Assembly: GCA_001805615.1 (NCBI GenBank)
Contig: MHGP01000035.1
Coordinates: 10,222 to 62,743, forward strand
Reading direction: 5' to 3'
DNA length: 52,522 nucleotides
From: Omnitrophica WOR_2 bacterium RIFCSPHIGHO2_02_FULL_48_11
GTDB lineage: Bacteria > Omnitrophota > Gorgyraeia > Zapsychrales > GWA2-47-8
Part shown: positions 2,162 through 51,117 of the stretch, in pieces
Layout: every line of letters starts with the position of its first letter
Position numbering within the stretch: position 1 is the first letter of the stretch
The notes under the pieces: generated by a model
The model's database searches: none
What the model was told of the DNA's origin: nothing
What the model saw: only the letters and a program-made list of their open reading frames with translations
Made by a program: the position numbers and the translations under genes

Positions 2162-2194
2162 AAGAATTTAATTAATTTTGATGAATTAAAACTC

Positions 2195-2222
2195 ATAGTA
2201 ACATGCGGGCACATATAATCAA
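2195..2222 (-). promoter_or_regulatory. Weak candidate sigma70-type promoter TTGATT-N16-TACTAT upstream of the B12 radical SAM gene
   Basis: The minus strand of the 69-bp gap 2162..2230 reads TTGATT (2222..2217), a 16-nt spacer, then TACTAT (2200..2195). Both hexamers are imperfect and there is no operator-like repeat. Confidence 0.3.
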
Positions 2223-2230
2223 TTTTTATA

Positions 2231-3478: not shown

Positions 3479-3487
3479 GATGAACGC

Positions 3488-5265: not shown

Positions 5266-5277
5266 CTGTATAAAATT

Positions 5278-10440: not shown

Positions 10441-10452
10441 GATGATTCCTTT

Positions 10453-11361: not shown

Positions 11362-11366
11362 ATTTT

Positions 11367-12491: not shown

Positions 12492-12497
12492 TGTAAG

Positions 12498-13163
12498 TTA
12501 TTCGAAATAAATAAATTCATAATCGCCGGTATAACCAAAATGCCGGTACAACCAGACCCATTCTTCCTGGTCAAAAAAGGATTCACACGTCAAGGCCCAG
12601 CACTGCAGATTGAAAAGCTCTGCTTCGCTGCGGTAACTTTCGAGCATGACATAACCCTGTTTGCCGACGCGTTCGACTTCCTTTAAAGCTTTTTCCAATT
12701 CAAAGAGCCGCAGGTTATGAAAACATCCCAGGGATATCACCAGATCAAAATATTTATCTTTCCAGGGATAAGGCACGTCCTGCGCCTTGCGGCGGGTTAA
12801 ATGAGACCGTATGCCTTCGGGCGCGTCGGCGAGGCCGTGTTTGGAAATATCAAAACCATGCACCTCGGATTGCGGCAGCAATTGTTTTAATTCATACAAT
12901 AAATGGGCCTTGCCGCAGCCAATATCTAAAATTTTGGCATCCGGTTTTAAATGATACGTTTTGATAATATTTTCGGCAGCGGCTTTCCAGCGGCCGTCAT
13001 ATTTGTAACCGCCATATCCGTACCTTCGATCGCCGTCCCAATAATCAAATTCATATTCCTTGGCCTTCAACATGCAATGAATTTTGTCATCCACCATGCG
13101 GGCCAAATAATCTCTTTTAGTTCTTTTGTGCAACGGTGTCACGATCTCGCGCAGTTGTCCCAT
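12498..13163 (-). CDS. Class I SAM-dependent methyltransferase
   Basis: Motif I ILDIGCGKAHLL, 221 aa. Confidence 0.8.
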   Translation of the reverse strand: MGQLREIVTPLHKRTKRDYLARMVDDKIHCMLKAKEYEFDYWDGDRRYGYGGYKYDGRWKAAAENIIKTYHLKPDAKILDIGCGKAHLLYELKQLLPQSEVHGFDISKHGLADAPEGIRSHLTRRKAQDVPYPWKDKYFDLVISLGCFHNLRLFELEKALKEVERVGKQGYVMLESYRSEAELFNLQCWALTCESFFDQEEWVWLYRHFGYTGDYEFIYFE

Positions 13164-13167
13164 CGAT

Positions 13168-14187
13168 TTACTCCCGCTTTTCTTTTTTTATGGCGAGGCT
13201 CGCCTCGTATTTCGGCGAGGCGGCCTTTACCAATTCTGATTCTGATAGTTTTGCTGGAATTTCGCTATTCACTAAATTCTTCAGAACGTCCACCAGATGA
13301 TCCGTGGTGATCTTAAATTCTTTCATCAAACTCGCCTGTGAACCGTATTTCTTTGGGAATACATCCGGGATACCGATGCGTTTAAATTTTTTACCCGGAT
13401 TGAAATTGGCCTCGGCCAAAATTTCCGCCACCGCCCCGCCTAAACCGCCCAGGATAGTATGTTCTTCGATCGTCACCACCGTGGCAACCCGGTCTGCGGC
13501 TTTTAAAATACTTTCTTTATCCAAGGGTTTTACCGTCGGGACATGCAGAACAGTGATTTCTAACCCTTCCTGCGCCAAACGTTCGGCCGCTTCCAAACCA
13601 TTTTGCAAAGTAATACCGGTCGTGATCACCAACGCATCGCTGCCTTCGCGGTAGAGCAAGGCCTTGCCAATTTTAAAAGGAATATCTTCGCGCGTTACGA
13701 TGGGATCGCCACCCTTCGCAAAACGGATATACATCGGGCCAGGATAATCCAATGTCTGGGCCATCACCCGCCGCATTTCCTCCGCGTCCGCCGGCGCCAC
13801 AATCGTCATGTTGGGGATCGCGCGCAAAATCGCAATATCATCGATCGCTTCATGGGTCGGCCCTAAGGGCGTATAAACCAATCCGCCGCCGCTCGCCAGA
13901 AGCCGCACATTGACATTATGCAAACACAGATCCAGCACAATCTGCTCGAAACAGCGTCGAGTCAAGAAAGTGGCGATCGTGTTGATATAAACGATCTTCC
14001 CCTCCATCGCTAAACCCGCCGCGAGCCCCACGATATTGGCCTCGCTGACGCCTTCCATTAAGAAACGTTCCGGCATTTCATCTTTAAATTTCTGTAAGAC
14101 GCCGACACCCAGATCCGATCCTATAAAAAAGACGCGTTTATCTTTCTTCGCTAATTCATACACCACATCTAAGCTGGCTTGCCGCAT
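13168..14187 (-). CDS. Transketolase, C-terminal (pyrimidine-binding) subunit
   Basis: 339 aa with ..FLMEGVSEANIVGLAAGLA.. and a transketolase C-terminal domain layout. It lies immediately downstream of the N-terminal subunit gene. Confidence 0.9.
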   Translation of the reverse strand: MRQASLDVVYELAKKDKRVFFIGSDLGVGVLQKFKDEMPERFLMEGVSEANIVGLAAGLAMEGKIVYINTIATFLTRRCFEQIVLDLCLHNVNVRLLASGGGLVYTPLGPTHEAIDDIAILRAIPNMTIVAPADAEEMRRVMAQTLDYPGPMYIRFAKGGDPIVTREDIPFKIGKALLYREGSDALVITTGITLQNGLEAAERLAQEGLEITVLHVPTVKPLDKESILKAADRVATVVTIEEHTILGGLGGAVAEILAEANFNPGKKFKRIGIPDVFPKKYGSQASLMKEFKITTDHLVDVLKNLVNSEIPAKLSESELVKAASPKYEASLAIKKEKRE

Positions 14188-14190
14188 AAA

Positions 14191-15018
14191 TTACTCCACC
14201 TGTTCCAAAAGTTTTACGATCTCCTCATCGGAAACCTTGCTCTTGTGATGCCATTTCATATTGTTCTCGCAAAAGCTGATCCCTTTTCCCTTCACCGTAT
14301 GACAAATGATGGCGGTCGGTTTCTGTGAGTCGACCGGTAATGAAGAAAAAAGTTTACGCAAAGCTTCTACATCATGACCATCCACCTCGACCGTGCCAAA
14401 ACCGAAACTGCGCCATTTATCGGCAAAAGGTTCCAGGTCCTGGACTTCGAACGTCGTCGAGTAGGACTGGTGCTTGTTGTAGTCAACGATAACCGTCAGA
14501 TTGCTCAATTTATGTTTTCCGGCGGACAGCGCGGCTTCCCACACGGAACCCTCGTCACACTCACCGTCGCCGACAATCACAAAAACGCGGTGCTTGGCTT
14601 TTTCAATTTTTCCATTAAGCGCAAAACCTAAACCAATCGAAAGCCCGTGCCCCAAACTTCCCGTCGAAGCTTCAACACCCGGCACTTTATGCTCCGGATG
14701 CCCTCCCAAGATTCCGTCAGCCTTACAGAACTTCCACAATTCTGCTTCCGGGAAAAATCCTTTCTCGGCCAAAATAGTGTACAGTGCCAAACAGCCATGA
14801 CCTTTGCTTAAAATACAGCGGTCGCGGTCCTTCCAATGAGGGTTTTTCGCATCATAATGCAAAATATCGTCATAAAGAACGCGTAAAATCTCCACGACGG
14901 AAAACGCCGACCCAACGTGCCCCCGGCGCCCGGCATCTAAAATCTTAATGATCGTCCGGCGAAGCTCTTTGGAACGTTTATCCAACTGGGACTGACTATG
15001 CATGACTGGTTGATTCAT
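14191..15018 (-). CDS. Transketolase, N-terminal (thiamine-diphosphate-binding) subunit
   Basis: SKGHGCLALY, GSLGHGLSIGLG, and the ThDP motif GDGECDEGSVWEA...VIVDYN. Confidence 0.9.
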   Translation of the reverse strand: MNQPVMHSQSQLDKRSKELRRTIIKILDAGRRGHVGSAFSVVEILRVLYDDILHYDAKNPHWKDRDRCILSKGHGCLALYTILAEKGFFPEAELWKFCKADGILGGHPEHKVPGVEASTGSLGHGLSIGLGFALNGKIEKAKHRVFVIVGDGECDEGSVWEAALSAGKHKLSNLTVIVDYNKHQSYSTTFEVQDLEPFADKWRSFGFGTVEVDGHDVEALRKLFSSLPVDSQKPTAIICHTVKGKGISFCENNMKWHHKSKVSDEEIVKLLEQVE

Positions 15019-16069
15019 AATATTCCTTAACTGTCCTTAACATTTTCTGGGCTTTATGCAGTTGCTCTTTCAAAATCTTTTTTCGATCGCCCAACTCCCC
15101 TTGCGCGAATCCCCGGCGGAGCATGTCCTTGGGGACAAACTCATTCAAAAGGATCAACGTCCACTTCATGCTCCACAGCGGATAAAAAAGTTGAACCCGT
15201 TGCGCTAAATTCCGGTATTCGCCGAAGACCTGATAAATTTCTTTCGCAAACTGCTGCTGGGATGCCTCAGACAGGCTCATGCCCGGATGCAACAAGAAAT
15301 CCGAGATCATTTTCACCGGATCATCCCAGCCGAAATATTCGAAATCTAGAAAGACCAGGCTTCCGTCCGGGCGGCGCAAGGCATTGTGAAACCCAAAATC
15401 CGACGGGCTTAACGTCCTTTCACTGGCGCTGCTCTCCTCAGTAAAAGCAATGCCCCACTTCTCCAATTCTTTTTTCGTCTGTTCGATCGCGTGCTGTAAA
15501 AAAGGCAAATACTCGCTTTTAAGAAAATCATGCAGCCATTGGTATTCTTCCCCTTCACCTTGCACGGCCAGCAGCCGGTTAAATCGTTTTTCTAAATTAT
15601 CGAACAAGGCCTGCGCCGAAAAACACGCCTCGGAGGCGGGAGCAAAATCCTGTCCCCGCGCCTTACCGCGCAGATCCTTGAGCGTTGCCAAAAAATTCAC
15701 TGCGACAGTGATGTCTTGAGCGCTTACCGCCGAGGATACGATCTTTTCTCCGTCAATAAATCCATAAATAGCGCATGCATCTTTAACATCCGCCCGGATA
15801 GGCTCGGGGATGCATCTTACGCCGTTATTCCACAAAAATTGCAGACTGTTAAACTCAACGCCCGCGCGGTCACGCTTATCTCCCGGATGCTGAAAATAAA
15901 ATTTGGCAGCATAAAATTTTCCGCCCTGCGTTTCGATGCGGTAAACCCGGCTATTGCGTCCGCCGCCGATAGTTTCCGCCGAAACAACCGCCCGGCCCAA
16001 CAGGGCTGCGGCGATCCTTTTGGCTGCTTCGACCTGTGTTTTATCTTCTTGCCCCAGCGAAATAGTCAT
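14996..16069 (-). CDS. Aminoglycoside-phosphotransferase/choline-kinase-fold kinase
   Basis: Catalytic-loop-like FGFHNALRRPDG followed by FLDFEYFGWDDP (Mg-binding DFE-type motif), 357 aa. Confidence 0.7.
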   Translation of the reverse strand: MTISLGQEDKTQVEAAKRIAAALLGRAVVSAETIGGGRNSRVYRIETQGGKFYAAKFYFQHPGDKRDRAGVEFNSLQFLWNNGVRCIPEPIRADVKDACAIYGFIDGEKIVSSAVSAQDITVAVNFLATLKDLRGKARGQDFAPASEACFSAQALFDNLEKRFNRLLAVQGEGEEYQWLHDFLKSEYLPFLQHAIEQTKKELEKWGIAFTEESSASERTLSPSDFGFHNALRRPDGSLVFLDFEYFGWDDPVKMISDFLLHPGMSLSEASQQQFAKEIYQVFGEYRNLAQRVQLFYPLWSMKWTLILLNEFVPKDMLRRGFAQGELGDRKKILKEQLHKAQKMLRTVKEYYESTSHA

Positions 16070-16667
16070 AAATTTCTTCCCACGTCGATAAAACCCTGAC
16101 GCTTTTCAACGGTTGCCTTTTATCATTCGATGCATACAAAATTTTTTCAACATTATTCGGAAACGAATCTTCTAGAAAAGTTTCTTCCAGATCATCAATA
16201 AAATGCGTACAACCCAGTTGTTTAAGCCGGGCGATCTTTTCTGCCCGGGTCGATTCAAAAAATATCTGTTTCTTAGATAAACCTAATCCTCCTGCTGAGA
16301 AAAAACCATTTGCCCGCATCCAGTTTAAAGCGACATGCCGCAGATCAATTCCCTCACGGTCCATCGACGCAAATTGGGTTTTGTGACTGATAACGCACAC
16401 GTCCCATTTTTCTTTTTTACAAAATTCCACGAACTCTTTCACGCCGTCTATCAACTGGGCTTGATCCATGGCCTTACCATAAATAAAGGCCTGTAATTTC
16501 TGCCACTGAATATCACCGTCAGGCAACCGGCGGATATGGTCACGGATCTCCTTCTTATTCCGCGGCACTTGTCCGTTGATCAATCCCCAGGCCTGTGCCG
16601 TCTTAAGCATCACCGCGTCATAATTGACGATCGTATTATCAAAATCGATCCCGATGACGTGTTTCAT
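16041..16667 (-). CDS. HAD-superfamily hydrolase (putative sugar-phosphate phosphatase)
   Basis: N-terminal DxDxT motif (VIGIDFDNTIV), 208 aa. Confidence 0.75.
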   Translation of the reverse strand: MKHVIGIDFDNTIVNYDAVMLKTAQAWGLINGQVPRNKKEIRDHIRRLPDGDIQWQKLQAFIYGKAMDQAQLIDGVKEFVEFCKKEKWDVCVISHKTQFASMDREGIDLRHVALNWMRANGFFSAGGLGLSKKQIFFESTRAEKIARLKQLGCTHFIDDLEETFLEDSFPNNVEKILYASNDKRQPLKSVRVLSTWEEIYDYFAGARR

Positions 16668-17662
16668 TTTAAATGCACCGTTTTCATCGTGCGGATATTG
16701 TAATAACGGTCATCCGTCATCGAGTTGGGAATTTTATTCGCGTCAAAAGCCTTCTTAAGATCCAAGATCGCCTGTTCAATGGTGTGCCGCGGAGCAAAGT
16801 TCAGCTCCTTCTTGATCTTCTTGGAAGAAACATGATACGACCGGTTGTCATCCGTCGGCACAGTCTTGATCGGGACATGGTCGCCCACGATGGACTGGAC
16901 CATTTTGGCGATATCCTTGACTTTATGGTTCTCGTAACCGGCGTTATAAATTTTTTTGTGAATTTTTTCGTCCGGCAATTCCAGCAAATACACATAAAGG
17001 TCGGTCATGTCTTCGATATGAATATTCGGCCGCGTCTGATCGCCGCCGAAGACCGTGATCTCTTTTTTGTTGATGGCGTGATTGGTCAAAATATTGACCG
17101 TCAAATCTAAGCGCAGGCGCGGCGAATACCCGCACACCGTTGCCGGCCGCAAGATCGAAACGATAAAGTCATCCGTCGCTTCTTCTAAAAGAACATCTTC
17201 ACAAAGCGCTTTATATTTGGAATAATCGGTCAACGGCTCGAGCGAAAGTTCTTCCGTGACATCCGTCGTCTCCTTGATCCCGTAAACGCTCGAACTCGAG
17301 GCGTAAATAAACCGCTTCACCTTGTTTTTCTTGGCAATCTGGACCAACGGCCGAAAGGCATCATAGTTGATCGACTTCCCCAACCCCGGGTCCAGATCAA
17401 AACTGGGGTCATTGGAAATGCAGGCCAAGTGGATCACCGCATCCGTGCCCGGCATGATCTTTTCCAATAATTTCGTATCGCGCAGATCCCCCTTGATCTC
17501 GGTCAAATTGGGATGCCCTTGTACCTCTTTTAAGACAGCATCGCCGTAAAGATAAAGGTCCAACACCTTGACCTTATAACCTTTCTTGATAAGTTTGGGG
17601 ACCAGCACGGCCCCGACATAACCGGCACCGCCGGTGATCAAAATCGTCTGCAGCTTACTCAT
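16664..17662 (-). CDS. NAD-dependent epimerase/dehydratase (extended SDR)
   Basis: ILITGGAGYVG Rossmann motif and YSKYK (YxxxK). I place the start at Met23 of the ORF (MSKLQTIL..), which gives an ATGA overlap with the upstream stop at 17659. Confidence 0.85.
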   Translation of the reverse strand: MSKLQTILITGGAGYVGAVLVPKLIKKGYKVKVLDLYLYGDAVLKEVQGHPNLTEIKGDLRDTKLLEKIMPGTDAVIHLACISNDPSFDLDPGLGKSINYDAFRPLVQIAKKNKVKRFIYASSSSVYGIKETTDVTEELSLEPLTDYSKYKALCEDVLLEEATDDFIVSILRPATVCGYSPRLRLDLTVNILTNHAINKKEITVFGGDQTRPNIHIEDMTDLYVYLLELPDEKIHKKIYNAGYENHKVKDIAKMVQSIVGDHVPIKTVPTDDNRSYHVSSKKIKKELNFAPRHTIEQAILDLKKAFDANKIPNSMTDDRYYNIRTMKTVHLK

Positions 17663-18261
17663 AACGCCTCTACCTTTCGATTGGCTTTTAAGTTTTTTGC
17701 AATAATGACATCGATAAACATGTGACAAATAGCGTGATGGATCACTTCGACGTGACCATATTGCATGCTAGGAACATAAAAATTAATTTCACCTTTCGTC
17801 CTAAGGGGATTATTTTCCCCAAATCCAGAAAGAGTAATAATACGGATTTTCTTTTTCTGAGCAACATCGATCGCTCGTAAAATATTTTCAGACATCCCAG
17901 AACTGCTGATCGCGATTAAAACATCTTTCTCCTCGCCGAACATTTCAAGCGGTTTCTCAAATACATGCTTATAGCCATTGTCGTTGCCAATACAGGTCAA
18001 CGATACACTGTCATTGAAAGCCGTGGCGCGCACGCCGGCATTCTTCCAAAAATCGGTTGCCATATGACTGGCGATCGCGGAGCTCCCACCGTTTCCGATG
18101 AGCATAAGTTTTCCGCCGATATTGGTCTGCGCCAAAATCAAATTAATCGCGGATTCGACTGCCTCATCTAAAGCAGAAAGACCTTCTCCTTTTTTAGTTG
18201 TAACGATATCCTTCAATAAACTTATTAGCAACTGATGATTGTGGTTTATTTCTTCTTTCAT
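17659..18261 (-). CDS. gmhA: SIS-domain sugar-phosphate isomerase, sedoheptulose-7-phosphate isomerase-like
   Basis: LIGNGGSSAIASHMATDF and AISSSGMSENI closely follow GmhA-type SIS motifs. 200 aa. Confidence 0.7.
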   Translation of the reverse strand: MKEEINHNHQLLISLLKDIVTTKKGEGLSALDEAVESAINLILAQTNIGGKLMLIGNGGSSAIASHMATDFWKNAGVRATAFNDSVSLTCIGNDNGYKHVFEKPLEMFGEEKDVLIAISSSGMSENILRAIDVAQKKKIRIITLSGFGENNPLRTKGEINFYVPSMQYGHVEVIHHAICHMFIDVIIAKNLKANRKVEAL

Positions 18262-19790
18262 TTGAGTAACCTCGTTATAAATTTGTTTAGATCCACCAGA
18301 TGAACCGGCTCACGGTTGCAGACGATCTGCACCGCCAATGATCCGACGGCATTGCCGATAAACGAAATAAGATCCTGCGGCAATTTGGCGGCAAAACACG
18401 GAGCTACATAGGCAAAAAAGGCGTCTCCCGCCCCGATCGCATCAACGATCCGATAAGCAAAGGCCGGGGTTTCGTGAAAGCCTTCTTTCTGTGAATAACA
18501 TTGCGAACCATGGAACCCGCGCGTGGCGATAATATGTTCGCAGCCGATCTGCGCATAAACTTTCTTTAAAAGCATGCGCACATCGCTGAACTTGTCATGC
18601 GCCGCGTAGCGCAATTCCATCTCATCGATACACACACAATTGGCACCCGGATATTTTGTGATCAGATTAAAACCGATATTGGCGCTATTGGTCTGAACAT
18701 TGACGGCCAGATATTTGGCCTTTGAACGGACAAAGTTGATGATCTTCTTGGTCATCAACCCGTGACCGAAATCTGAAACAATGACCACATCATAATTCTT
18801 TATTCTTTTCTGCAGCTGCTCGAGGATCTGCGCTTCTTGTTCCGCGGCAATATCATCATCCTTGATGTAACAAATCTCAAATAATTTCCGGCTACCCCAT
18901 TCGCTCACATAACGCCGCTTGACGATCGTCCCGCTGTCGGGCCGATAAACAAAAAAAGGCATGATGTTCGAAGCGAGTTTACCGCGGATAAAATCTTCAC
19001 AGGTGTTCTTTTTTCCCAAAACCGTCAACAGATCCACTTTGCCGCAAACGCTGGCCACATTATTCGCCGTTGCCAAAGTCCCTCCCGCGAACATTTCCTC
19101 GGACGTATAGCGGGTCGCCACCAAATGCTCCTTGGAGGATTTTCCCATCGGAAGACAATAATGATATTCGTCGATGATCGCATCGCCGATCACCAGCGCA
19201 TTCAATTTCTTCAAGCCTTGCAAAGAATTCACGACAGAATCGATCGTATAACGTTTACCCAGCGCCCGCAGGTACTTAAAAGTGCGCGACGGAAAAACAT
19301 CCAGATTATTATTGATCAAACTCGAGGAACTAAAGGTGATGTCATCGGTAAAGGCAATGCGCCCGCCGACCGATTTAACGGCATCCTCTTCTTCATAGAT
19401 CTTGCCGGTGACGTCCTTTTCACGGCTGCGGTATTCGGACCCCTTCGCATAAACGTTAGGCTTTAAAATTTTGATGGCCTCGACCGCCGTCGGAGCATCA
19501 ACGACACTTACGTAATCCGTGACCGCCAAAGACGCCAGCGTTTCGGAACGCAGATCTTCATTAAAGATCGGCCGGCCCGGCCCGCGCTTGACATGTTTAT
19601 CCTTGGTGACAGTGACGACGAGGACATCACCCTCTTTTTTTGCCAAATTAAAATGCCGGATGTGCCCCAAATGCACCAGGTCAAAGACACCGTGGCACTG
19701 GACGACCTTTTTGCCTTTTTTCTTCAAGTCCTCGACGATCTTGGCCAACGCCGGCAACGGCTTAATCTTTATTTTGACGTTATTTTCCAT
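18258..19790 (-). CDS. Bifunctional nucleotidyltransferase (cytidylyltransferase fold) / PfkB-family sugar kinase, HldE-like with inverted domain order
   Basis: N-terminal HxGH motif (FDLVHLGHIRH). C-terminal PfkB signature DAIGAGDAFFAY. The ORF opens at a GTG at 19844, but I prefer the ATG at 19790, which is preceded by AAGGAAA. Confidence 0.8.
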   Translation of the reverse strand: MENNVKIKIKPLPALAKIVEDLKKKGKKVVQCHGVFDLVHLGHIRHFNLAKKEGDVLVVTVTKDKHVKRGPGRPIFNEDLRSETLASLAVTDYVSVVDAPTAVEAIKILKPNVYAKGSEYRSREKDVTGKIYEEEDAVKSVGGRIAFTDDITFSSSSLINNNLDVFPSRTFKYLRALGKRYTIDSVVNSLQGLKKLNALVIGDAIIDEYHYCLPMGKSSKEHLVATRYTSEEMFAGGTLATANNVASVCGKVDLLTVLGKKNTCEDFIRGKLASNIMPFFVYRPDSGTIVKRRYVSEWGSRKLFEICYIKDDDIAAEQEAQILEQLQKRIKNYDVVIVSDFGHGLMTKKIINFVRSKAKYLAVNVQTNSANIGFNLITKYPGANCVCIDEMELRYAAHDKFSDVRMLLKKVYAQIGCEHIIATRGFHGSQCYSQKEGFHETPAFAYRIVDAIGAGDAFFAYVAPCFAAKLPQDLISFIGNAVGSLAVQIVCNREPVHLVDLNKFITRLLK

Positions 19791-19894
19791 CCCAATTTTC
19801 CTTAATACTCCCAATTGATCGTATAGATGAAATTGGGATAGCACTGATTACCTTTATTGTTGTTTTAGAAACATCAGGCATTCCGATTTCCCTT

Positions 19895-20899
19895 TTAATC
19901 CTTTACTAAATATTTGAACCAATCTTCCGTCGCTTTTTCAATTTTCTCCGGGGTCCACACCGGCGCGTCTTTCCAGTAATCGATATACTGCAGCGTCTTT
20001 TCGACACCCTCTTCGAACGACACCTTAGGCTCCCAGCCGATCATTTTTTGAATTTTAGAAATATCCGCCCAGGTGCAATCCGGTTCACCGGGCCGCCTGG
20101 GAATATGGACCTTTTCTCCCCCAAGCAATTCGGCTAAACGGTTAACGCTTTGCGGGTTTCCTGTCCCGACGTTAAAAATTTCACCCTGCACGTCCGAATG
20201 AGCGGCAGCGATGAACGCGTCCACCACATCCGAGACATAGGTAAAATCACGCTTTTGATTTCCGTCACCGACGACCGTGTACGGTTTTCCGGCGAGTTTT
20301 TGCGCCAGAAATACGCCGAAAACCGCTCCGTAGGTTCCGGTCGTACGAGCCCGCGGACCATAGACATTAAATAAACGCAAAGACACAACCGGCAATTTAT
20401 AAACTTGTCCCCAATGCAAGGCAGTCTGCTCCCCGATATATTTGGTGAAGGCATAGGGATATTGCGGACTTATGGGAGTTGTTTCCGGGGAAGGAAAGTA
20501 TCCTTTCGGAGGAATACCGTAGCAAGAAGTCGATGCGGTATATAAAAATCTTTTTACACCCGACAAGCGCGCGGCCTCCACCACCGTCATGGTGCCCTGC
20601 ACGTTCGACCAGAAATATCCCTGCGGATTGACGATCGAAGGAACAATGTCCGCCAAGGCCGCCATGTGGAAGACCATCTCCTGATTTTTAAAATGCGGGA
20701 TGATCTTTTCAAAGTTCGCCACATCCGTCTCGACCACTTTAAGATTGGAATTCCCTTTGTGCTGAGCGAGATTGGCCGGCTTGCTCGTTGAAAAATTATC
20801 CAGGACAGTGACTTGATGTCCATCCGCGATCAGGCGATCCACCAAATGACTGCCGATAAAGCCCGCTCCCCCCGTCACTAAAACTTTCTTGCTTCCCAT
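19895..20899 (-). CDS. NDP-sugar dehydratase/decarboxylase-type extended SDR (UDP-glucuronate decarboxylase / 4,6-dehydratase-like)
   Basis: VLVTGGAGFIGSHLVDRL, YAFTK (YxxxK), 334 aa. Confidence 0.8.
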   Translation of the reverse strand: MGSKKVLVTGGAGFIGSHLVDRLIADGHQVTVLDNFSTSKPANLAQHKGNSNLKVVETDVANFEKIIPHFKNQEMVFHMAALADIVPSIVNPQGYFWSNVQGTMTVVEAARLSGVKRFLYTASTSCYGIPPKGYFPSPETTPISPQYPYAFTKYIGEQTALHWGQVYKLPVVSLRLFNVYGPRARTTGTYGAVFGVFLAQKLAGKPYTVVGDGNQKRDFTYVSDVVDAFIAAAHSDVQGEIFNVGTGNPQSVNRLAELLGGEKVHIPRRPGEPDCTWADISKIQKMIGWEPKVSFEEGVEKTLQYIDYWKDAPVWTPEKIEKATEDWFKYLVKD

Positions 20900-20903
20900 G
20901 CTT

Positions 20904-23201
20904 TTACCTCCAAGCTGGATTAATAATTAACTGTTGCTTATCCCCCATTAACAAAACCCATACAAAGGCCGCGGCAAGAGTGAACGCAACGGCCAAACCA
21001 AACAAGGCAATGCCCTGACTGATAACCGAGCCTAAGCCGTTTTCGAAAGCAAAGCGGACATGATGCTGCCCGCCGGTCAAAAGAACCGCTTTGAAATTTA
21101 AATACGCCTCAAAGACCGAAACGCGTTTTCCGTCAATATAGGCCTTCCATCCGGGGTGATACGAATCGGCATACACCAGCCAAGCGCCGGCCGAATAAGG
21201 CACGTTGACATCAAAAGCAACCTGATTGGCGGAAAATTTTTTCATCCGGATCTCCGAATTTTCCCTGGGCCGCGGCGGCTGATTTGAAAATGCATCCTTG
21301 GTCGCGGCATCCACACCGCGCAGCACCGCTGTATCAAATATTTTTGGCATGCTGCGCATCGCAGCGGTAGTCTGCTCCAGCGTATCCGTATAAACCGCCT
21401 TGGAAACCAACCGGATCTTCGGGGTATAGCAGCCGATCGTGCGTAAAAAATCTTCATCAATGCTATACCGGGTCTGCGTAAACCGCGAAAATCCCAAAGG
21501 CAGCATATGCGTTTTAAATTCCGAAAAACAGGAATCAAATTGAAAGAAGCTGTACGCGACGGAATAATGATTTCTGCCTTCCGGCCGGGTCACCAGCTGA
21601 TACGCATCTTTCTGCCGGGACTCCACGGGCTTCTCGGTCCTTTTTTCCTGAAACTGCATCGGATGCGCCTGCAACGTATAAAGCAAGGGACGGTATTCGT
21701 CCGAAAGTTTTTCCGCTGCCTTATAATAAATGAGCTGGGACGAAAAAATATCAAATAAAAATGCCGCTATAAGCACAGCCTGGCTCAGCGGACCCATCCA
21801 CCCGCGGTTCAATTTCCGCTGTGTCTTTTTTTCATAAATATTGCAGATCACAAAAACCATAACGAGCAAAAGGACCGCGGCCAGATACACCATATATTTC
21901 AAAGGAACACTGTTCAGCGTGAGACTCGCCGCCCACCCTTTCCAATCCGATCCTTTAAGATAAAAATCCATGATCCAATCGCCGGATACCCGGAAGGCAT
22001 CGATGAGAAAAACCAAAATAGCTGCAACGATCAAGGCCGAACGCACTTGCACTTTGCCGGGGGTTTTCCAGAAACTCTCCCACCCAAAGCCCGCACACAG
22101 CAGCATGAATATATGAATAACATAATCGATGAGACCAATGTGACGATAATAGGACATCCCCGGAAAAAAATAACACAAGGCCGAAAAAATACCGCCAGCC
22201 GAATACCACCACAGCAATACCGTCGCAGCTAAAAAAACAAAGAAAATTTTACTTCTTACTTTCAGAATAGCCCAAACAAAGAAAAAGAGCGGTAACAAAC
22301 CGATATACCTGGTCGATGGGTTATGGACCGTTTGCAGCTGATAAAAATGGGACAGGCCGTTGCCTGTGCTCCAGGTCAAGAACATCCCTAAAGAATTTTT
22401 GCCGCCCGGGCCGCGAGACCGCAAATCAACAAAATCCAGCATCTCTTTCAGATGAACAAAAAGGCTGGCCGCCACGACTACGCACACAACGATCAAAAAA
22501 ATACTGTAGTTAGACGGCTGCTTAAAGCCGTGCCAAATTTTCTTGTCGCTGATCAAATAAAGGCCCACAAACAATATGGTAAAAATGAAGGTCCACAGAG
22601 AAATATAATAGAGGATCGTCCCGGTGATCCACGCCATAAAGACAACACCTACCAACCAAAAAAATTTCGGTTTCTTCCTCTCAAAGAATAAAAGCAAAAA
22701 ATAAATCCCTAAAGGAAGCAAATAAAAGATACGAAAATTGAAATTCACCTGGTGATACATGTCCGGATAACTCACGGCCGCAAGGCACAGGATAAAGATC
22801 GTGCTCTTTTGGGCGAACAACGCTCTGCTCAACAAATACATCCCCATGAGAAAGATCAACTGTTCCGCCAGCAAGGTCGCCTTAAACAATAAGAGCGCGT
22901 CTTTGATCTTAAAAATGTATCCCGCCAAAAATGACAAATAGCTGAACGGCGTGATCGATTCCAACTGTTCATGGTTGCTCAACAATCCAAAAGTATCAAA
23001 AGGCATCCACTGCGCGATCTCTTTGTTAAACAGCAAGTTGCTATAAAAAAAATGATAGAGTTCATACGCCAGCATTGAGTCGTGCCGCGGGATTATGTTG
23101 CTCTGAAAATAAGGCACATTCAAAGCAATAACAATGAGCGCCAGAACGCCCAGCAGGCACCGTCCCCAGAGGTGATCAATAAATTTCAAACTTTCCTTCA
23201 T
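20904..23201 (-). CDS. Polytopic membrane protein, YfhO-like (GT-C-type) glycosyltransferase
   Basis: 765 aa with many hydrophobic helices over about 480 aa. The C-terminal soluble domain carries YADSYHPGWKAYIDGKRV, characteristic of YfhO-family proteins. A final C-terminal TM helix is present. Confidence 0.65.
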   Translation of the reverse strand: MKESLKFIDHLWGRCLLGVLALIVIALNVPYFQSNIIPRHDSMLAYELYHFFYSNLLFNKEIAQWMPFDTFGLLSNHEQLESITPFSYLSFLAGYIFKIKDALLLFKATLLAEQLIFLMGMYLLSRALFAQKSTIFILCLAAVSYPDMYHQVNFNFRIFYLLPLGIYFLLLFFERKKPKFFWLVGVVFMAWITGTILYYISLWTFIFTILFVGLYLISDKKIWHGFKQPSNYSIFLIVVCVVVAASLFVHLKEMLDFVDLRSRGPGGKNSLGMFLTWSTGNGLSHFYQLQTVHNPSTRYIGLLPLFFFVWAILKVRSKIFFVFLAATVLLWWYSAGGIFSALCYFFPGMSYYRHIGLIDYVIHIFMLLCAGFGWESFWKTPGKVQVRSALIVAAILVFLIDAFRVSGDWIMDFYLKGSDWKGWAASLTLNSVPLKYMVYLAAVLLLVMVFVICNIYEKKTQRKLNRGWMGPLSQAVLIAAFLFDIFSSQLIYYKAAEKLSDEYRPLLYTLQAHPMQFQEKRTEKPVESRQKDAYQLVTRPEGRNHYSVAYSFFQFDSCFSEFKTHMLPLGFSRFTQTRYSIDEDFLRTIGCYTPKIRLVSKAVYTDTLEQTTAAMRSMPKIFDTAVLRGVDAATKDAFSNQPPRPRENSEIRMKKFSANQVAFDVNVPYSAGAWLVYADSYHPGWKAYIDGKRVSVFEAYLNFKAVLLTGGQHHVRFAFENGLGSVISQGIALFGLAVAFTLAAAFVWVLLMGDKQQLIINPAWR

Positions 23202-24781
23202 AATTTCCCAAATCCCCGTCGGGTCAGCCGGCGTCCCAAAAGCCTGAACAGCAGCCGGCCGTAATTGGGCCCGGTCTTCATGATCTTAAAAGACGAGAAC
23301 CCCATGACCAAAGAACGATTCATCCAAGAGATCGGGACCTCTGCCACCTTGTACCCCAACAGCAAAGGTTTTAATCCGGTTTCGGCATTCGCCGCAAAAT
23401 CATCGAATTCAATTGTGATATTTTGCGCCACCGTTCTTTTAAAAATTTTCAGATTGTTCGTTAAGTCCCGGAATTGTTTTCCCAGAAGGATATTGGCCAG
23501 AAAGTGAAACGCCCGGTTAGCGATGATCTTCGTGAACGGATAATTCAAGAGGACCGATTCTCGGGAGAACCGCGACCCGACCACCACGTCCGCTCCCTTC
23601 ACCAAGGCATCAAACAAATCACGCAATTCCGGAATGATCTCCTGAAAATCGCAATCCATGATCAGAACGTATTCCCCTTTCGCCGCAGCAATCCCTTCCC
23701 GCAAAGCACGGCCTACGCCGTTGGGCGGACTGCGCTTGACGACACGAACTCTTAGGTCTTCAACAGCCAGTTTTTGAGCGACCGCATACGTTTGGTCTTT
23801 GGAATTGTCATCGACAATAATAATTTCATGAATATATTTTCCGTAAAAATTTTTTAACCCCTCGACCAAAGGGCCGACGTTCATTTCTTCATTATGGCAT
23901 GGGATAACAAAGGAAACTTGGCCGGCGAACTCAGCATGCTCAGCGAGGTCCCGGCTGATCCTGGGTTGAGCGTTGGTGGCGGCATACCGGGCCCAGACAT
24001 AAATCGACCCGGCAAAATTCCGGATCCCTGGACAATTTTCCATAATTAAGCTTAAATTTTTGGCCGGCCAGAGCAAACGGCGCGGGACCGGGGCGTATAA
24101 GAAATCATAAGGAGTGGCATGAATGTGGGTGTAACCGGTTTCGGAAAATACGGAAAGGATTTGCAGATGATTTAAGGAGAGCGCTTCAGCCGGTCGGCGC
24201 CAGCGGATAGGAATGAGCCTTTGGATGAATCTGCGCAGCCGGTAATACGGGTTCCAGGGATTGAGCTCAAAAAACAAGACCGCGCCTCCAGGTTTCAGCA
24301 AATGCTTAACATCATTCAGCAAAATATTACGGCTCTCATCGCCCAGCATATGATGCGCCACGATATAGTCGAATTTTTCCTCACGGATAGGCCCGGGAAA
24401 ATCATCCATATACTTGACCTGCGCGTTCAACCCTTGGAGAGTTTTCTCAGCGCGGCCGGCGTCTTCTTTGGAAAACACCACCGCAGTCACCGGGCATTCG
24501 TTGCGGGTAACTTTAATCATCGCCTGGGTGAAGATGCCGCTGCCTGCCCCGATTTCCAATATCTTCTGCCCGGGAAGAATGTGAAAAATATGCCGCATCG
24601 TTGAGGCCCGCCACTGCATCCTTTCGGCAATGAAATGATCGTATTGACCCCAGTACCCCATCCTGCTTTTTTCCTGGACGTAAAGCTTATCCGCCAAGCA
24701 TTCTCCTTGAGAACGTACCGGGTATTGCGGGATTGTAGGAGCAGAGGTTTGGAGTTCTTTATCCATTAGATTAAAACTCAC
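23198..24781 (-). CDS. Fusion: N-terminal class I SAM methyltransferase plus C-terminal GT2 polyprenyl-phosphate glycosyltransferase-like (DPM1/GtrB-like) domain
   Basis: MT motif I ILEIGAGSGIFT. GT2 motifs VSFVIPCHNEE, IIIVDDNSKDQT, VLIMDCDFQ. ATGA overlap with the YfhO-like gene. Confidence 0.8.
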   Translation of the reverse strand: MSFNLMDKELQTSAPTIPQYPVRSQGECLADKLYVQEKSRMGYWGQYDHFIAERMQWRASTMRHIFHILPGQKILEIGAGSGIFTQAMIKVTRNECPVTAVVFSKEDAGRAEKTLQGLNAQVKYMDDFPGPIREEKFDYIVAHHMLGDESRNILLNDVKHLLKPGGAVLFFELNPWNPYYRLRRFIQRLIPIRWRRPAEALSLNHLQILSVFSETGYTHIHATPYDFLYAPVPRRLLWPAKNLSLIMENCPGIRNFAGSIYVWARYAATNAQPRISRDLAEHAEFAGQVSFVIPCHNEEMNVGPLVEGLKNFYGKYIHEIIIVDDNSKDQTYAVAQKLAVEDLRVRVVKRSPPNGVGRALREGIAAAKGEYVLIMDCDFQEIIPELRDLFDALVKGADVVVGSRFSRESVLLNYPFTKIIANRAFHFLANILLGKQFRDLTNNLKIFKRTVAQNITIEFDDFAANAETGLKPLLLGYKVAEVPISWMNRSLVMGFSSFKIMKTGPNYGRLLFRLLGRRLTRRGFGKL

Positions 24782-25520
24782 CTTTTATCATGAAATACGG
24801 TAAGACCTTATTGAAAAATTTAAATTGGTCAGTATAACTTTCGGTTTTTAATAATGAAGGAAAACAATTAATCAAGAGGGGAGGAAAAAATCCAAAACGG
24901 CGATATTGAATATTATGAAAACCGGCTTCAGTCAGGCTCATTCTAACACGATCAGGAAGGCTGTCGAACTTATGGCCCTCAGCTTGCCAGCCTCGATCCA
25001 ACAAAGTATCAATGTAGTGCAAAGGATTTAAAGCGTTCGGTTCCAAAAAAACCATCCTGCCATCTTTTTTGAGACAGCGTGCGATATTTTCAAAACAATT
25101 TTTAACATCAAATAAATGATGCAGGACATTAAAGCCGATCACAATATCGAACTTCTTATCATTTTCAACGTTTAAGCTATGAATATCGCTGCGCATGATC
25201 GTGTACTGCTTTTCGGGTATTTTCAGTTTATCAGTATCTTCCTGAAGTTTCTTCAGCATTCTTTCGGAAATATCGATAGCCGTAAGCTGGTATCCTCTTA
25301 AAAGCAGCGGAAGTGTATATCGCCCTGCCCCGCAGCCTATCTCTAAAATTTGCTCTTGCGTGGTCAGCGTGGCAAAAGGGATAAATTTATTTAGAATTGA
25401 AGCAACAAAATGCGAATTGCCGTCATACCACATCCGGGAGTGTTCCCGGGAGTTATAGAACTCCTTTTGAAAGCTATTCCACTTCTCTTGTTCCGTGATT
25501 TTGACCTGGCTAGTTAGCAT
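24771..25520 (-). CDS. Class I SAM-dependent methyltransferase
   Basis: Motif I ILEIGCGAGRYTLP, 249 aa. First gene after the internal promoter. Confidence 0.8.
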   Translation of the reverse strand: MLTSQVKITEQEKWNSFQKEFYNSREHSRMWYDGNSHFVASILNKFIPFATLTTQEQILEIGCGAGRYTLPLLLRGYQLTAIDISERMLKKLQEDTDKLKIPEKQYTIMRSDIHSLNVENDKKFDIVIGFNVLHHLFDVKNCFENIARCLKKDGRMVFLEPNALNPLHYIDTLLDRGWQAEGHKFDSLPDRVRMSLTEAGFHNIQYRRFGFFPPLLINCFPSLLKTESYTDQFKFFNKVLPYFMIKGEF

Positions 25521-25589
25521 ATATTCTTCAGATTGTTTGCGCAGTAATTCGTTTAATATGAATAACTTAAATCTCTATATAAACTCCCA

Positions 25590-25606
25590 TGTTCAAAATA
25601 TGAACA
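25590..25606. promoter_or_regulatory. 17-bp perfect palindrome TGTTCA-N5-TGAACA (candidate operator, copy 2)
   Basis: Plus strand 25590..25606 reads TGTTCAAAATATGAACA. It lies 7 nt downstream of the -10 hexamer of promoter P2, and the same half-sites occur at 51101..51117. Confidence 0.5.
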
Positions 25607-25613
25607 CTTGTGT

Positions 25614-25641
25614 ATTATAGTCCTTAACTCCCCCCTGTCAA
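25614..25641 (-). promoter_or_regulatory. Consensus sigma70-type promoter P2: TTGACA-N16-TATAAT
   Basis: Minus strand reads TTGACA (25641..25636), a 16-nt spacer ggggggagttaaggac, then TATAAT (25619..25614). It sits in the 132-bp gap between the 25653 stop and the 25520 start. Confidence 0.6.
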
Positions 25642-25652
25642 GGCAAAAACCG

Positions 25653-27020
25653 TCACTGGCCAGTGTTTTGTTCCAAATAATTACCCACACGGGCACTGGT
25701 CTTACCTCTCTCACTTATGGCGTATTGTTTTAGGGACGGCTCCGCCACAACTTCTACCAATTGCGCCCTGCGTAATTTTTCAGCGATAAGGGACAGCTCC
25801 TGGACCGGCACATTGATCTTCTCGCTGATGTCGATTAAATCAAGTTTCCCGTCCGCGTAGGCAATAAAATCCATCATGTTCCTGACTTGCTCAGCCGACC
25901 CCTTGGCGCTGATTGTCGGATAGAGGCCTCTTTTCCCCAGCTGCGGCTCACCCAAACACGTCATTTTATATTTTTTATTTTTTTCCAATGCCTCGATACA
26001 CTCTTGCAGCACTGCAAATGATCCGGCCAATCCTTCCGCCGAAATAAGTTTTAAATTATCCAAGGACGTATGATATTCGGGATACGTTCCATATTTGCTG
26101 CGCATAATGGAAGCCACCGGCAGGTCAGCTCCGACGGAACAATACTGCCGTTCATCGCTGCCGCGATTCAAAAATGAATACTTAATAAAATCTGGGTGTC
26201 TCAATTTCAACACATTCAGCGCGACCTTGTCCGCCAATGTGTTCCCTAGCCGGGAAGGAAGATACGAATAACAACGCTCATCGCCGACGCAGGTCACATT
26301 AAAACCGGCAATGATGTTTTGTTTCATGTGTTGCAAATTTTTGCTCAGATAAGTGACCGAGCCGATCGTTTCCGGAATAAAAACAATCCGATAGGTATAT
26401 TCCCGCGGTTCACTTAAAAGCCATTTGGCCAGAAACGTGGTGACCACCGGGCCGGAAAGTTCATTATTGGCCATAGAAGGATGGCAAACGTAAGTGGAAA
26501 GAAAAATCTCCTTTTGTGATTGGCCCGGGATGATCAATTCACCATAGGTGAGCGAGCCATCCTTGAGTTCGGAATCGATCACGACTTTATACTTCCCCTT
26601 TTTCAGCTTCTGCCGATCCTTATGCGCCAGGCAAAATCCCCACCGCTCTGCATAATAAGAAGTGACATACGGTATGGCATTGGGTAATTTCTTATCCGAA
26701 TAAAGATGCTCTTGGAGCTCAGCCAGCGTAACGGTTTTATTGACCGGGGTCGCATAACCAACGACGTGGAGGTTATTCTTCTTAAAATCAATGACCTTCT
26801 TTCCCTTGGCATCACTGACATAGGCGTCCTGGATATTCCATTCTTTGGGAACCGTCCAATCAAACACCGGCGTTCCCGACGGGACTTCCTGCACGGTTAA
26901 AGGAATGTGCTCTTGCAATATTTTCAGGGTCGCCCGGACACCGTTTCCCGTAATGCTGCGGCATATCGGGAGCAACCGCTCCGCCAATTTGTACATGGCT
27001 TTTCCTGTCATAGTGTTCAT
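25653..27020 (-). CDS. Aminopeptidase-like (M28-fold, DUF4910-type) polysaccharide-locus protein with C-terminal winged-helix segment
   Basis: 455 aa. The layout and segments such as YRIVFIPETIGS match my recollection of the COG4310-type family that accompanies AAC(3)-like genes in glycan loci. Unverified without an HMM search. Confidence 0.55.
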   Translation of the reverse strand: MNTMTGKAMYKLAERLLPICRSITGNGVRATLKILQEHIPLTVQEVPSGTPVFDWTVPKEWNIQDAYVSDAKGKKVIDFKKNNLHVVGYATPVNKTVTLAELQEHLYSDKKLPNAIPYVTSYYAERWGFCLAHKDRQKLKKGKYKVVIDSELKDGSLTYGELIIPGQSQKEIFLSTYVCHPSMANNELSGPVVTTFLAKWLLSEPREYTYRIVFIPETIGSVTYLSKNLQHMKQNIIAGFNVTCVGDERCYSYLPSRLGNTLADKVALNVLKLRHPDFIKYSFLNRGSDERQYCSVGADLPVASIMRSKYGTYPEYHTSLDNLKLISAEGLAGSFAVLQECIEALEKNKKYKMTCLGEPQLGKRGLYPTISAKGSAEQVRNMMDFIAYADGKLDLIDISEKINVPVQELSLIAEKLRRAQLVEVVAEPSLKQYAISERGKTSARVGNYLEQNTGQ

Positions 27021-36376: not shown

Positions 36377-38107
36377 TTAAGCGCCGGCCGCTAAAATTTC
36401 ACGGAAGCGATCGATCCCGCGATCATCATTGTATTCATCATATTCCCGCAGCAATTCAGCCGGGATGGAGCTGCACGGATTTTCATTTCCTATCAATATT
36501 TTCTTGATCATGTTCAATAATTTCTCGGGATCGGCAAAAACAATTTTATCCTTAAAATGTTTGGCAAAGGGATGGCCGTAACCGACTTCATCCAGATACA
36601 GGCCCTCGATCCCGCAGATGATCGCGATCGTGGATGAGCTGGTCATTCCCTGGCTGACAACGATATCGGCAACTCCGATCGCTTCGATAAAGCAATATTT
36701 CTTCTCATCGAGGATATAAAAATTCGTCGTCCGCTTGATCCCCTGCCGGATCTCCTCAAACTGCGCCTTAAGCGGCCGCGGCAGCTGCTGAAATCTTTCC
36801 GCGGCCTTGGGCTTTATCAGGACGGTCACGTTAGGATTTTCCAAAGCGCATTGATAAGCTGTCCGCCAAAAATTGACAAAATGCTGCGGCGTCATCTCAC
36901 AGATCTCGTCAAATGATTCATCGAAAAATGAAACGACCCGACGGTCATTGGGCAGGCCCAGTTCCGCCAGGACCGACTCCTTCCGCTGGGCCACATCACA
37001 AATGAACCGTTTAAAGACATAACCCGTCGGCACATACGGCGTCGACAAACCCTGCACGTGGATCTTCCCCCATGTCAAATATTTGTCGCAGCCTAAATTC
37101 GAAACGGTCCAGCGGTTCGATTCAATCGAGAAATCAGACCAATGCATCAGGTAATACCGTGTCCCATAATTCTCACAGATGATCGCCTCGGCGATATGGT
37201 TGGAGGCAAAATAACAATGCCCCAGCTCCGAGGTCACGCGATAGTGCGAGAAGATCCGCTCATAGGCTAAGGCATAAAACGCAAAATATAAAAATATGGC
37301 CCGGAATAGCGTAAAATTCCCAGACGGCAATTCTTTCCATAAAAGACCGCTGCTTGCCAAGATGTATCGGGGAATAACCCTTCCGAAAAACGGCTTCACA
37401 CCCAACGACAACTTTTGCAGATTAAAGTGTGCGTAAGGAGACCGCCGGGCGTCCTCATAGCCTTTAAGCCGTGCCCCGGTTTTTGGGATGCTCCTGGAGA
37501 AAAGCAAAAATGATTTTTGCTTTATCTTTTCGCTATCAACCAAAAAATCATCATGAAAGTAATATCCGCCCACGTCATACAAACCCCAAACCGCTTCCCG
37601 CATCACCTTATAAGACTCTCGCGGACCCCGCAGAGTCAAACCGTTTTTCAAACTGAAAGCTAAACAAAACAAAATGTTCCAAAAAATTTGGGCCAGGCGC
37701 TCCCCAAGACCCGACCGTTTCCATTGAACCTTGGGCGAGATCTTAAATTTAGCGGCAAAGCGTTCAACGGCAAACCGGTGGATCGCATTATCCTCTAAAA
37801 CAACCGGGCCGGCAGAATCCGCCAGACTGTCGTTGAGAAGATTGGAAAGCTTGATCATGTATTCCAAAACACAGCGGCTGGCAAAGAAATTAAAACGGTG
37901 CGTTTGAAAACTCTTATTCAACCCCTTCACAAAATCCGATTCCAGGATTTTGTTCGTTTGAATAAACTCATCGGCGAGCTTTGGGATCTCATCGTTGAGC
38001 CAGCGGAAATACTCGGGATTGAGACGTTCCCGGTTGGCCGCATCAAAAGGCAGAAAGAACCGTGTCAGGATCTCGCCAAAAATAATTTTTTTAAAAATAT
38101 CGGTCAT
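36377..38107 (-). CDS. Hypothetical 576-aa protein with GT-B-like C-terminal domain (candidate nonulosonic acid transferase)
   Basis: Long ORF embedded in the pse genes with no named family recognised. The C-terminal ~190 aa (VVSFFDESF..VLIKPK..SQGMTSSSTIA..GYGHPF) parallels the 404-aa protein at 40289..41503. Confidence 0.4.
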   Translation of the reverse strand: MTDIFKKIIFGEILTRFFLPFDAANRERLNPEYFRWLNDEIPKLADEFIQTNKILESDFVKGLNKSFQTHRFNFFASRCVLEYMIKLSNLLNDSLADSAGPVVLEDNAIHRFAVERFAAKFKISPKVQWKRSGLGERLAQIFWNILFCLAFSLKNGLTLRGPRESYKVMREAVWGLYDVGGYYFHDDFLVDSEKIKQKSFLLFSRSIPKTGARLKGYEDARRSPYAHFNLQKLSLGVKPFFGRVIPRYILASSGLLWKELPSGNFTLFRAIFLYFAFYALAYERIFSHYRVTSELGHCYFASNHIAEAIICENYGTRYYLMHWSDFSIESNRWTVSNLGCDKYLTWGKIHVQGLSTPYVPTGYVFKRFICDVAQRKESVLAELGLPNDRRVVSFFDESFDEICEMTPQHFVNFWRTAYQCALENPNVTVLIKPKAAERFQQLPRPLKAQFEEIRQGIKRTTNFYILDEKKYCFIEAIGVADIVVSQGMTSSSTIAIICGIEGLYLDEVGYGHPFAKHFKDKIVFADPEKLLNMIKKILIGNENPCSSIPAELLREYDEYNDDRGIDRFREILAAGA

Positions 38108-38108
38108 A

Positions 38109-40255: not shown

Positions 40256-40288
40256 ATTTCCTCACTTCTCATTGCTGTTAAAAAAATT

Positions 40289-41503: not shown

Positions 41504-41506
41504 TCC

Positions 41507-44738: not shown

Positions 44739-44742
44739 ATTT

Positions 44743-51100: not shown

Positions 51101-51117
51101 TGTTCAATAATTGAACA
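51101..51117. promoter_or_regulatory. 17-bp perfect palindrome TGTTCA-N5-TGAACA (candidate operator, copy 1)
   Basis: Plus strand 51101..51117 reads TGTTCAATAATTGAACA. It lies 5 nt downstream of the -10 hexamer of P1 and 39 nt upstream of the regulator start codon. Confidence 0.5.

Follow-up and report, generated by a model that had tools for sequence, protein, structure and literature searches.

An internal promoter (P2) in the glycan locus examined here, from the MAG of an uncultivated Omnitrophota bacterium, is most likely a genuine second promoter under operator control by the regulator encoded at the head of that locus, as its sequence and the distribution of its parts among related loci suggest. 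It was found in the window (the whole 52.5-kb stretch of DNA that was analysed) together with a twin (P1) ahead of the regulator gene. Each consisted of a perfect consensus promoter followed by the inverted repeat TGTTCA-N5-TGAACA, a combination called a module below. The features of the window were the following.

25636..25641, minus strand: -35 hexamer of P2, TTGACA, identified by sequence match
25614..25619, minus strand: -10 hexamer of P2, TATAAT, at a 16-nt spacer from the -35 hexamer
25606..25590, minus strand: putative operator of P2, TGTTCAtatttTGAACA (TGTTCA-TATTT-TGAACA), an exact inverted repeat 7 nt past the -10 hexamer
25521..25608, minus strand: leader of P2, ca. 87 nt, with the start predicted at about 25607-25608 from the spacing to the -10 hexamer
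24771..25520, minus strand: class I SAM methyltransferase gene, 249 aa, ATG at 25520, the first gene past P2
25653..27020, minus strand: gene for a DUF4910/DUF2172/HTH_47 protein, the last gene ahead of P2
51123..51150, minus strand: promoter P1, TTGACA-16-TATAAT, 12/12 in the consensus scan
51101..51117, minus strand: putative operator of P1, TGTTCA-ATTAT-TGAACA, exact, 5 nt past the -10 hexamer, found by pattern search
50499..51062, minus strand: regulator gene, 187 aa, the first gene past P1, characterised with Pfam, NCBIfam and AlphaFold
25653..51062, minus strand: upstream gene chain, 24 genes
50..25520, minus strand: downstream gene chain, 23 genes within the window

Anatomy of the two promoters and their locus

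On re-reading of the minus strand, all coordinates, hexamers, spacers and half-sites that the sequence-only reading had given for P2 and P1 were correct, and its counts of 24 and 23 genes held within the window. The gene ahead of P2 ended in a TGA at 25655..25653 on the minus strand, followed after 11 nt by the TTGACA of P2, and the 132-nt gap carrying the promoter was the widest in the minus-strand gene chain. The 249-aa methyltransferase beyond the gap was the head of a conserved cassette of methyltransferase, methyltransferase-GT2 (MT-GT2) fusion and YfhO-like genes. P2 matched at each of the 24 specified positions and had the exact 16-nt spacer, and the T-tract upstream of the -35 hexamer and the C preceding it agreed with the phylum consensus described below. 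In P1 the hexamers occupied 51150..51145 (TTGACA) and 51128..51123 (TATAAT) on the minus strand, so that both sites had TTGACA and TATAAT within the 16-18 nt of each other that define a sigma-70-type promoter. The GC content profile had no break at P2. An invertible or mobile promoter was considered and rejected, as the repeat had 6-bp arms and a 5-bp spacer and lay without flanking repeats.

By consensus scans and a regular-expression count, the 52.5-kb window held only two 12/12 sigma-70 promoters, both on the minus strand, and only two exact copies of TGTTCA-N5-TGAACA, which coincided with those two promoters. An i.i.d. model of base composition gave expectations of ca. 0.03 perfect promoters and ca. 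0.004 palindromes per window, and the pairing of perfect promoter and palindrome at P1 and P2 is far beyond chance. The promoter spacers GGGGGGAGTTAAGGAC and TTTTTAGGCAATTCTT were unrelated, and the two sites had no similarity outside the functional hexamers. As they were alike only at functional positions, P2 was rejected as a recent duplicate of P1. The region 25200-26000 was identical in contigs of four DNA runs and was therefore uninformative on selection, and no RNA run was found to contain the sequence.

A one-mismatch palindrome, TGTCCAGCTTTTGAACA, lay at 112-128 inside the 3' end of the gene for a B12 radical SAM enzyme, with no promoter. This copy is probably due to chance, with 2.25 matches expected when up to two mismatches are allowed.

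All 47 of the 47 long open reading frames from 51062 to 50 were on the minus strand and tightly packed, and Pfam annotation agreed with the gene content that the sequence-only reading had assigned to the two halves. The upstream chain comprised the regulator, an iron-dependent alcohol dehydrogenase (Fe-ADH), DegT aminotransferases, cytidylyltransferases, two NeuB synthases, a UDP-GlcNAc 2-epimerase, a PglD-like acetyltransferase, an AMP-ligase with a carrier protein, a GT2 and a radical SAM protein. Two NeuB-type nonulosonic-acid pathways and an acyl-AMP ligase/ACP cassette thus lay within 25653..51062. In the downstream chain the methyltransferase, the MT-GT2 fusion and the YfhO-like membrane protein were accompanied by dehydratases, a kinase/cytidylyltransferase, a SIS protein, transketolase halves, C-methyltransferases, and SPASM and B12 radical SAM enzymes, and the chain included a heptose-like module. 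Identical genes were present on NCBI contig MHGK01000005.1 of assembly GCA_001805525.1, and the stretch also occurred in groundwater and soil metagenomes.

The locus did not end with the window. Same-strand glycan genes ran on for at least 10 kb beyond its start (positions 12123-22112 of L181/L182), which makes the locus at least 62 kb long. Past window position 1 this extension encoded an ABC transporter, a C-methyltransferase, a GDSL-like protein, an aminotransferase, dehydratases, a GT2 and a third cytidylyltransferase, and these 10 kb held no palindrome or perfect promoter that would form a third module. The proposal of a second transcription unit of about 25 kb with 23 genes was therefore too short at its distal end.

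Two smaller observations concerned the gene array. The longest open reading frame of the Fe-ADH gene, starting with GTG at 50614, overlapped the 3' end of the regulator gene by 116 nt (50499-50614), a pattern also seen in L001; the true start is probably near the regulator stop, as the Pfam match began only at residue 44. The GC content of window positions 2000-10000 was ca. 40%, against 44-51% elsewhere in the locus, and this segment of C-methyltransferase, radical SAM and SDR genes may be a separately acquired module.

The regulator and the distribution of its module

The best NCBIfam match of the 187-aa regulator was TIGR04176 (MarR family EPS-associated transcriptional regulator), with 49.4 bits against a cutoff of 88. 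The neighbourhood of polysaccharide genes that belongs to the definition of that family was present at the window locus. Residues 6-53 matched HTH_24 (29.4 bits vs a cutoff of 21.9), whereas the scores for the Pfam MarR families stayed below their gathering cutoffs (PF01047, MarR, 21.0 vs 24.6; PF12802, MarR_2, 23.1 vs 27). A protein database held 773 relatives, typically of 55-68% identity and 185-200 aa, and those that were named came from Omnitrophota. Among them the helix-turn-helix was almost invariant, with the pattern QRDLS, SLGxTNMLIRRL and KGYIRIxQLN.

In the AlphaFold model (pLDDT 85) a winged helix at the N-terminus was followed by a 38-residue helix, and the C-terminal domain was small and of beta-alpha-beta-beta-beta-alpha order. 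Foldseek gave MepR, HcaR, FabT and MexR as top matches over the N-terminal 100-130 residues (E 3e-4 to 3e-3), and RosR/AspA-type winged helices were matched as well, so that the predicted fold appears to be of the winged-helix type of MarR. The C-terminal domain (residues 100-187; 50499-50810), modelled alone, reached a pLDDT of 87, and its comparison with the PDB by Foldseek returned no significant structural neighbour (best E 0.44). This part of the protein may be a new small sensor domain, and its invariant residues R109, F111, G115, D118, C155 and E157 would be candidates for a ligand or redox site.

The cis-element was followed in 80 loci (L001-L080), gathered via the protein alone from one-genome-per-species bacterial and archaeal assemblies and totalling 1.23 Mb. 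Nearly all were labelled Omnitrophota or, in bulk MAG submissions, 'Planctomycetales'. The palindrome, with at most one mismatch, was found no more than 260 nt upstream of the regulator gene in 71 of the 80. Exact copies occurred in 59 loci, ca. 20-200 nt ahead of the regulator start in 55 of these, and 16 further loci had a one-mismatch copy in that upstream position, mostly with CGTTCA or TGAACG. Four more loci (L012, L017, L029 and L051) carried an exact palindrome 1.3-2.9 kb upstream of the regulator on the same strand; in three of these loci a promoter of 12/12 or 11/12 stood ahead of it, and in L029 none was recognisable. The sequence-only reading had named the absence of the motif from orthologous loci that keep the regulator as evidence against itself, and no such general absence was seen. 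In total the 1.23 Mb contained 61 exact palindromes, and every one lay upstream of a regulator gene and on its strand, 57 of them within ca. 200 nt of the regulator start (two in tandem in L036).

The promoter was conserved along with the repeat. When the best match within 50 nt upstream of the palindrome was taken and spacers of 15-18 nt were allowed, a 12/12 promoter stood ahead in 47 of the 71 loci and an 11/12 promoter in 15. A count of both strands gave 53 perfect promoters in the 1.23 Mb, and the palindrome followed 48 of them; the spacer in 47 of these 48 was 16 nt and not 17 nt. Relative to the end of the -10 hexamer, the palindrome started between -1 (sharing the final T of TATAAT) and +11 nt, a position suited to a repressor. 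Its spacer was 87% A/T, and an A/T-rich tract with a conserved C at -36 lay upstream of the -35 hexamer. It is unusual for a full consensus promoter to be conserved to this degree across a phylum. The co-occurrence of regulator gene, palindrome and consensus promoter was phylum-wide.

In nearly every locus a packed chain of same-strand genes followed the regulator. The first of them was a sugar-nucleotide 4,6-dehydratase/epimerase gene in 31 of 72 loci, and elsewhere nucleotidyltransferases, ABC transporters, radical SAM enzymes or SIS proteins were encoded first. Many of the glycan enzymes of the window had homologs in the flanks of the 80 loci. These chains of glycan genes behind the regulator indicated that the module is a conserved head of glycan loci in the phylum.

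A second search, in metagenomes, used the module as its query (perfect promoter, 0-12 nt, exact palindrome) and returned 95 loci. By an approximate classification of what lay downstream, these fell into four classes.

ca. 42 loci: a regulator of the 187-aa type
ca. 37 loci: a shorter winged-helix protein (ca. 110-130 aa)
ca. 12 loci: another gene first
ca. 4 loci: cut by the contig end

A regulator gene followed 0.7-3.2 kb further on in about eight of the loci with another gene first. The short subfamily had its ATG inside the palindrome spacer (TGTTCA-ATGAA-TGAACA), 8-9 nt after the -10 hexamer; this arrangement was found in L085, L096, L098, L108, L110, L111, L135, L136, L142, L148, L152, L153 and ca. 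25 more loci. With a start codon so close to the promoter, the mRNA of this class is apparently leaderless, and translation would begin within the putative operator of the gene itself. Two of the short proteins were compared with TIGR04176 and scored 99.0 and 102.3 bits (cutoff 88), and are therefore true members of that family. The occurrence of an identical 17-mer at the own promoters of two diverged subfamilies was the strongest argument for the regulator as the reader of the site.

We regard it as improbable that the palindrome is bound by some other protein, be it a winged-helix or a global factor, or that the locus regulator acts on it as an activator. Another binder might be sought in the product of the gene just upstream of P2, which has a C-terminal winged helix (HTH_47). 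However, homologs of this DUF4910/HTH_47 protein occurred in only 2 of the 80 loci, and its absence from the other 78 of these loci with the module led us to reject it as a P2-specific binder. The palindrome, by comparison, stayed with the regulator gene in 71 loci and in both subfamilies. The confinement of exact palindromes to regulator upstream regions and the presence of the palindrome behind 48 of 53 perfect promoters likewise make a global factor unrelated to the regulator gene unlikely. As for activation, a promoter with a perfect consensus can do without an activator, and a binding site between -5 and +18 is placed as for a repressor.

The repeat could also act as RNA: a 5' stem-loop of 6-7 bp would give the mRNA stability or serve as the target of an RNA-binding factor, with no part for the regulator. 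The 27-nt segments of both sites did fold, at -8 and -5 kcal/mol and better than shuffled sequences (z ca. -3), and the whole repeat of P2 would fall at about +1 to +18 and so within the transcript. Against this, the left arm would be untranscribed in the 18 of 48 perfect-promoter sites in which the repeat began -1 or 0 nt after the -10 hexamer, and also in the leaderless short subfamily, with its ATG in the spacer. The variants (CGTTCA or TGAACG) moreover affected one arm, and compensatory changes were not seen in the other; a scan of the whole window, the P2 leader included, gave no match to an Rfam family. From the untranscribed left arms, the one-sided variants and the lack of an Rfam match, the repeat was read as a DNA operator, and an action as RNA appears highly improbable.

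P2 as a probable second target within the locus

P1 and P2 were of one promoter/operator type, and the locus-encoded regulator is the best candidate for both, as the sequence-only reading had suggested. That reading had further proposed that P2 splits the locus into two units, a claim that our search for a terminator did not bear out. Between the stop at 25653 and P2 (25720-25641 scanned) no convincing terminator was found; the sole hairpin flagged near P2 was weak and inside a coding region, and the 200-nt region folded like its shuffles (z -0.07). Transcripts from P1 therefore probably read through, and P2 is better described as an internal promoter than as a proven operon boundary.

Modules in series, which the sequence-only reading had taken for an arrangement without a described parallel, also occurred elsewhere, two or three to a locus, and the module itself was phylum-wide. 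In L102 the order was module, B12 radical SAM gene, module, regulator. In L176 an exact palindrome preceded an APH-like kinase gene and a second one, 1.4 kb away, preceded the regulator gene; the promoters ahead of the two were matching variants (TTGyTT-16-TACAAT). Three modules lay in L095 (3036-7705 of a 9.6-kb contig); the palindrome was exact in two of them and had one mismatch in the third, and each spacer contained the ATG. Behind the first module of L095 stood a 54-aa remnant of a truncated short regulator, suggesting that regulator copies have been duplicated and have decayed. Modules also stood directly before genes other than the regulator, namely an O-antigen-ligase-like gene in L118/L127, a 2-hydroxyacid dehydrogenase gene in L125 and a UDP-glucose dehydrogenase gene in L169. 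In the 10-kb flanks of the regulator, second modules were rare among the 80 loci, with a tandem exact pair in one locus and tandem pairs of palindromes with 0-1 mismatch in L042 and L061. In L042, L010, L053, L072 and L004, a gene for a distant homolog of the MT-GT2 fusion (23-26% identity) lay shortly ahead of the regulator module in the same orientation. Like P2, the module is thus often embedded in a longer array of same-strand glycan genes.

The junction at which P2 lies was compared in five contigs with an orthologous cassette of methyltransferase, MT-GT2 fusion and YfhO-like genes (48-61% identity). None of them had a module ahead of the methyltransferase gene, which instead had an abutting gene directly upstream. 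P2 is therefore lineage-specific at this junction, and it could be a recent or even an unused acquisition. A related possibility is that P2 is redundant or vestigial, the remnant of a second regulator-headed unit left after fusion of two glycan loci, with the distal genes transcribed by read-through from P1. The want of a terminator ahead of P2 and of a module in the orthologous cassettes would both fit such a history. So would the occurrence, in single MAGs, of two regulator copies that each have a module (L005/L024 and L075/L078), and the serial module-plus-regulator units of L102 and L176, which make loss of a regulator a plausible origin. Yet a decaying relic would not be expected to keep 12/12 hexamers, the 16-nt spacer and a 12/12 palindrome when its non-functional positions differ wholly from those of P1, and an origin by fusion is compatible with function at present. 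We consider it unlikely that P2 is redundant or vestigial. As the exact palindromes in 1.23 Mb all lay upstream of regulators, an extra full module is very unlikely to be accidental, and a second operator-controlled promoter of the locus regulator is still the reading that we prefer.

Proposed mechanism and comparison with known systems

Taken as a whole, we consider it likely, on the grounds of sequence and co-occurrence, that the palindrome is the operator of the locus regulator, that P2 is a second co-regulated copy and that the control is by repression. A dimer of the regulator (50499..51062) would bind TGTTCA-N5-TGAACA, for which half-site centres 11 bp apart appear suitable. The operator would lie directly after the -10 hexamer or overlap it, covering, by the predicted start sites, roughly the stretch from -5 to +12 in P1 and that from +1 to +18 in P2, and the bound regulator would repress by blocking the binding or the escape of RNA polymerase. 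With perfect -35 and -10 hexamers, a 16-nt spacer and an A/T-rich upstream tract, the promoter is expected to be intrinsically very strong, and negative control would be expected of a promoter with a perfect consensus and no need of an activator.

By this mechanism the regulator would repress its own gene at P1, a negative autoregulation, and with it the first 24 glycan genes; at P2 transcription would start anew for the distal genes, again under this repressor. Both parts of the locus of at least 62 kb could in that way be kept at one set-point or be switched together, with P2 serving as a co-regulated booster of at least 23 distal genes and not as a strict operon boundary. The C-terminal domain of the regulator would be the candidate sensor. 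Binding by the regulator, repression and the positions of the start sites are what we infer from the sequence, and the anatomy of the modules and their non-random occurrence are observed.

A much wider scheme can be imagined, which we offer as speculation and hold to be unlikely in its entirety. The module would be a phylum-wide master switch for the surface-glycan loci of Omnitrophota, in which a promoter of maximal strength is held off by a repressor with a new type of sensor domain, responding for example to a nucleotide sugar or to redox state via Cys155, Glu157, Arg109 and Asp118. Extra operators such as P2 would recruit glycan modules into an all-or-none programme tied to a nanobacterial, host-attached lifestyle, and the operator would define the regulon of TIGR04176, a widespread family.

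The main value of these findings lies in a putative regulator/operator pair that extends through a phylum; P2 itself is of modest weight, a second operator of an ordinary repressor type. To our knowledge the Omnitrophota are uncultivated, and we know of no information on their gene regulation. The 17-mer allows prediction of the regulon in any MAG. Re-initiation at internal promoters under operator control may be the way in which loci of at least 60 kb are expressed. The conserved 12/12 promoter should function in E. coli, which would make repressor and inducer testable without culturing Omnitrophota.

The searchable literature on the motif, on TIGR04176 and on regulators of Omnitrophota yielded nothing relevant, and no published operator, mechanism or binding site was found in it. 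In the literature searched, the operator sequence of the TIGR04176 type, the 187-aa Omnitrophota subfamily with its extra domain and the near-universal 12/12 promoter with a fixed 16-nt spacer appear to be undescribed. The second copy within one locus is an ordinary extension of an autoregulated-repressor system.

MarR, MepR, OhrR and FabT are winged-helix dimers that bind an inverted repeat of 16-20 bp overlapping their own -10/+1 region; in MarR-type regulons the operator is repeated at further promoters, and autoregulation is textbook knowledge. The regulator described here resembles these repressors, of which MepR and FabT have been solved on DNA, in its modelled fold and in the conserved palindrome at its own promoter. 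It differs from them in an extra alpha/beta C-terminal domain of ca. 80 aa without a structural match, in a putative target that is a glycan locus of at least 62 kb and not an efflux or stress gene, and in a promoter that is a conserved perfect consensus. With TIGR04176 it shares the position beside polysaccharide genes, and true members of that family have the identical palindrome and consensus promoter. In contrast to that family, whose model covers ca. 105 positions and whose start is leaderless and within the operator, the window protein has 187 aa and its gene has a leader.

Rex-type repressors have a similar layout, in which a winged helix at the N-terminus is combined with an alpha/beta domain at the C-terminus and the operator at the promoter is palindromic. 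Compared with the winged helix and Rossmann sensor of Rex, the regulator has no GxGxxG motif and a different operator sequence. A Rex-like C-terminal domain was unsupported, the first Rex-family chain in the Foldseek results being at rank 48 (E 1.7).

Long glycan operons are controlled in another way by UpxY/UpxZ in Bacteroides and by RfaH with ops/JUMPstart in Enterobacteria, systems that act through NusG-like proteins on elongation and antitermination. The system proposed here resembles these in that very long glycan operons begin with a regulator gene or cis-element that secures the expression of distal genes. It differs in that the regulator is a predicted DNA-binding winged helix, the site is at the promoter and a second promoter would serve the distal genes.
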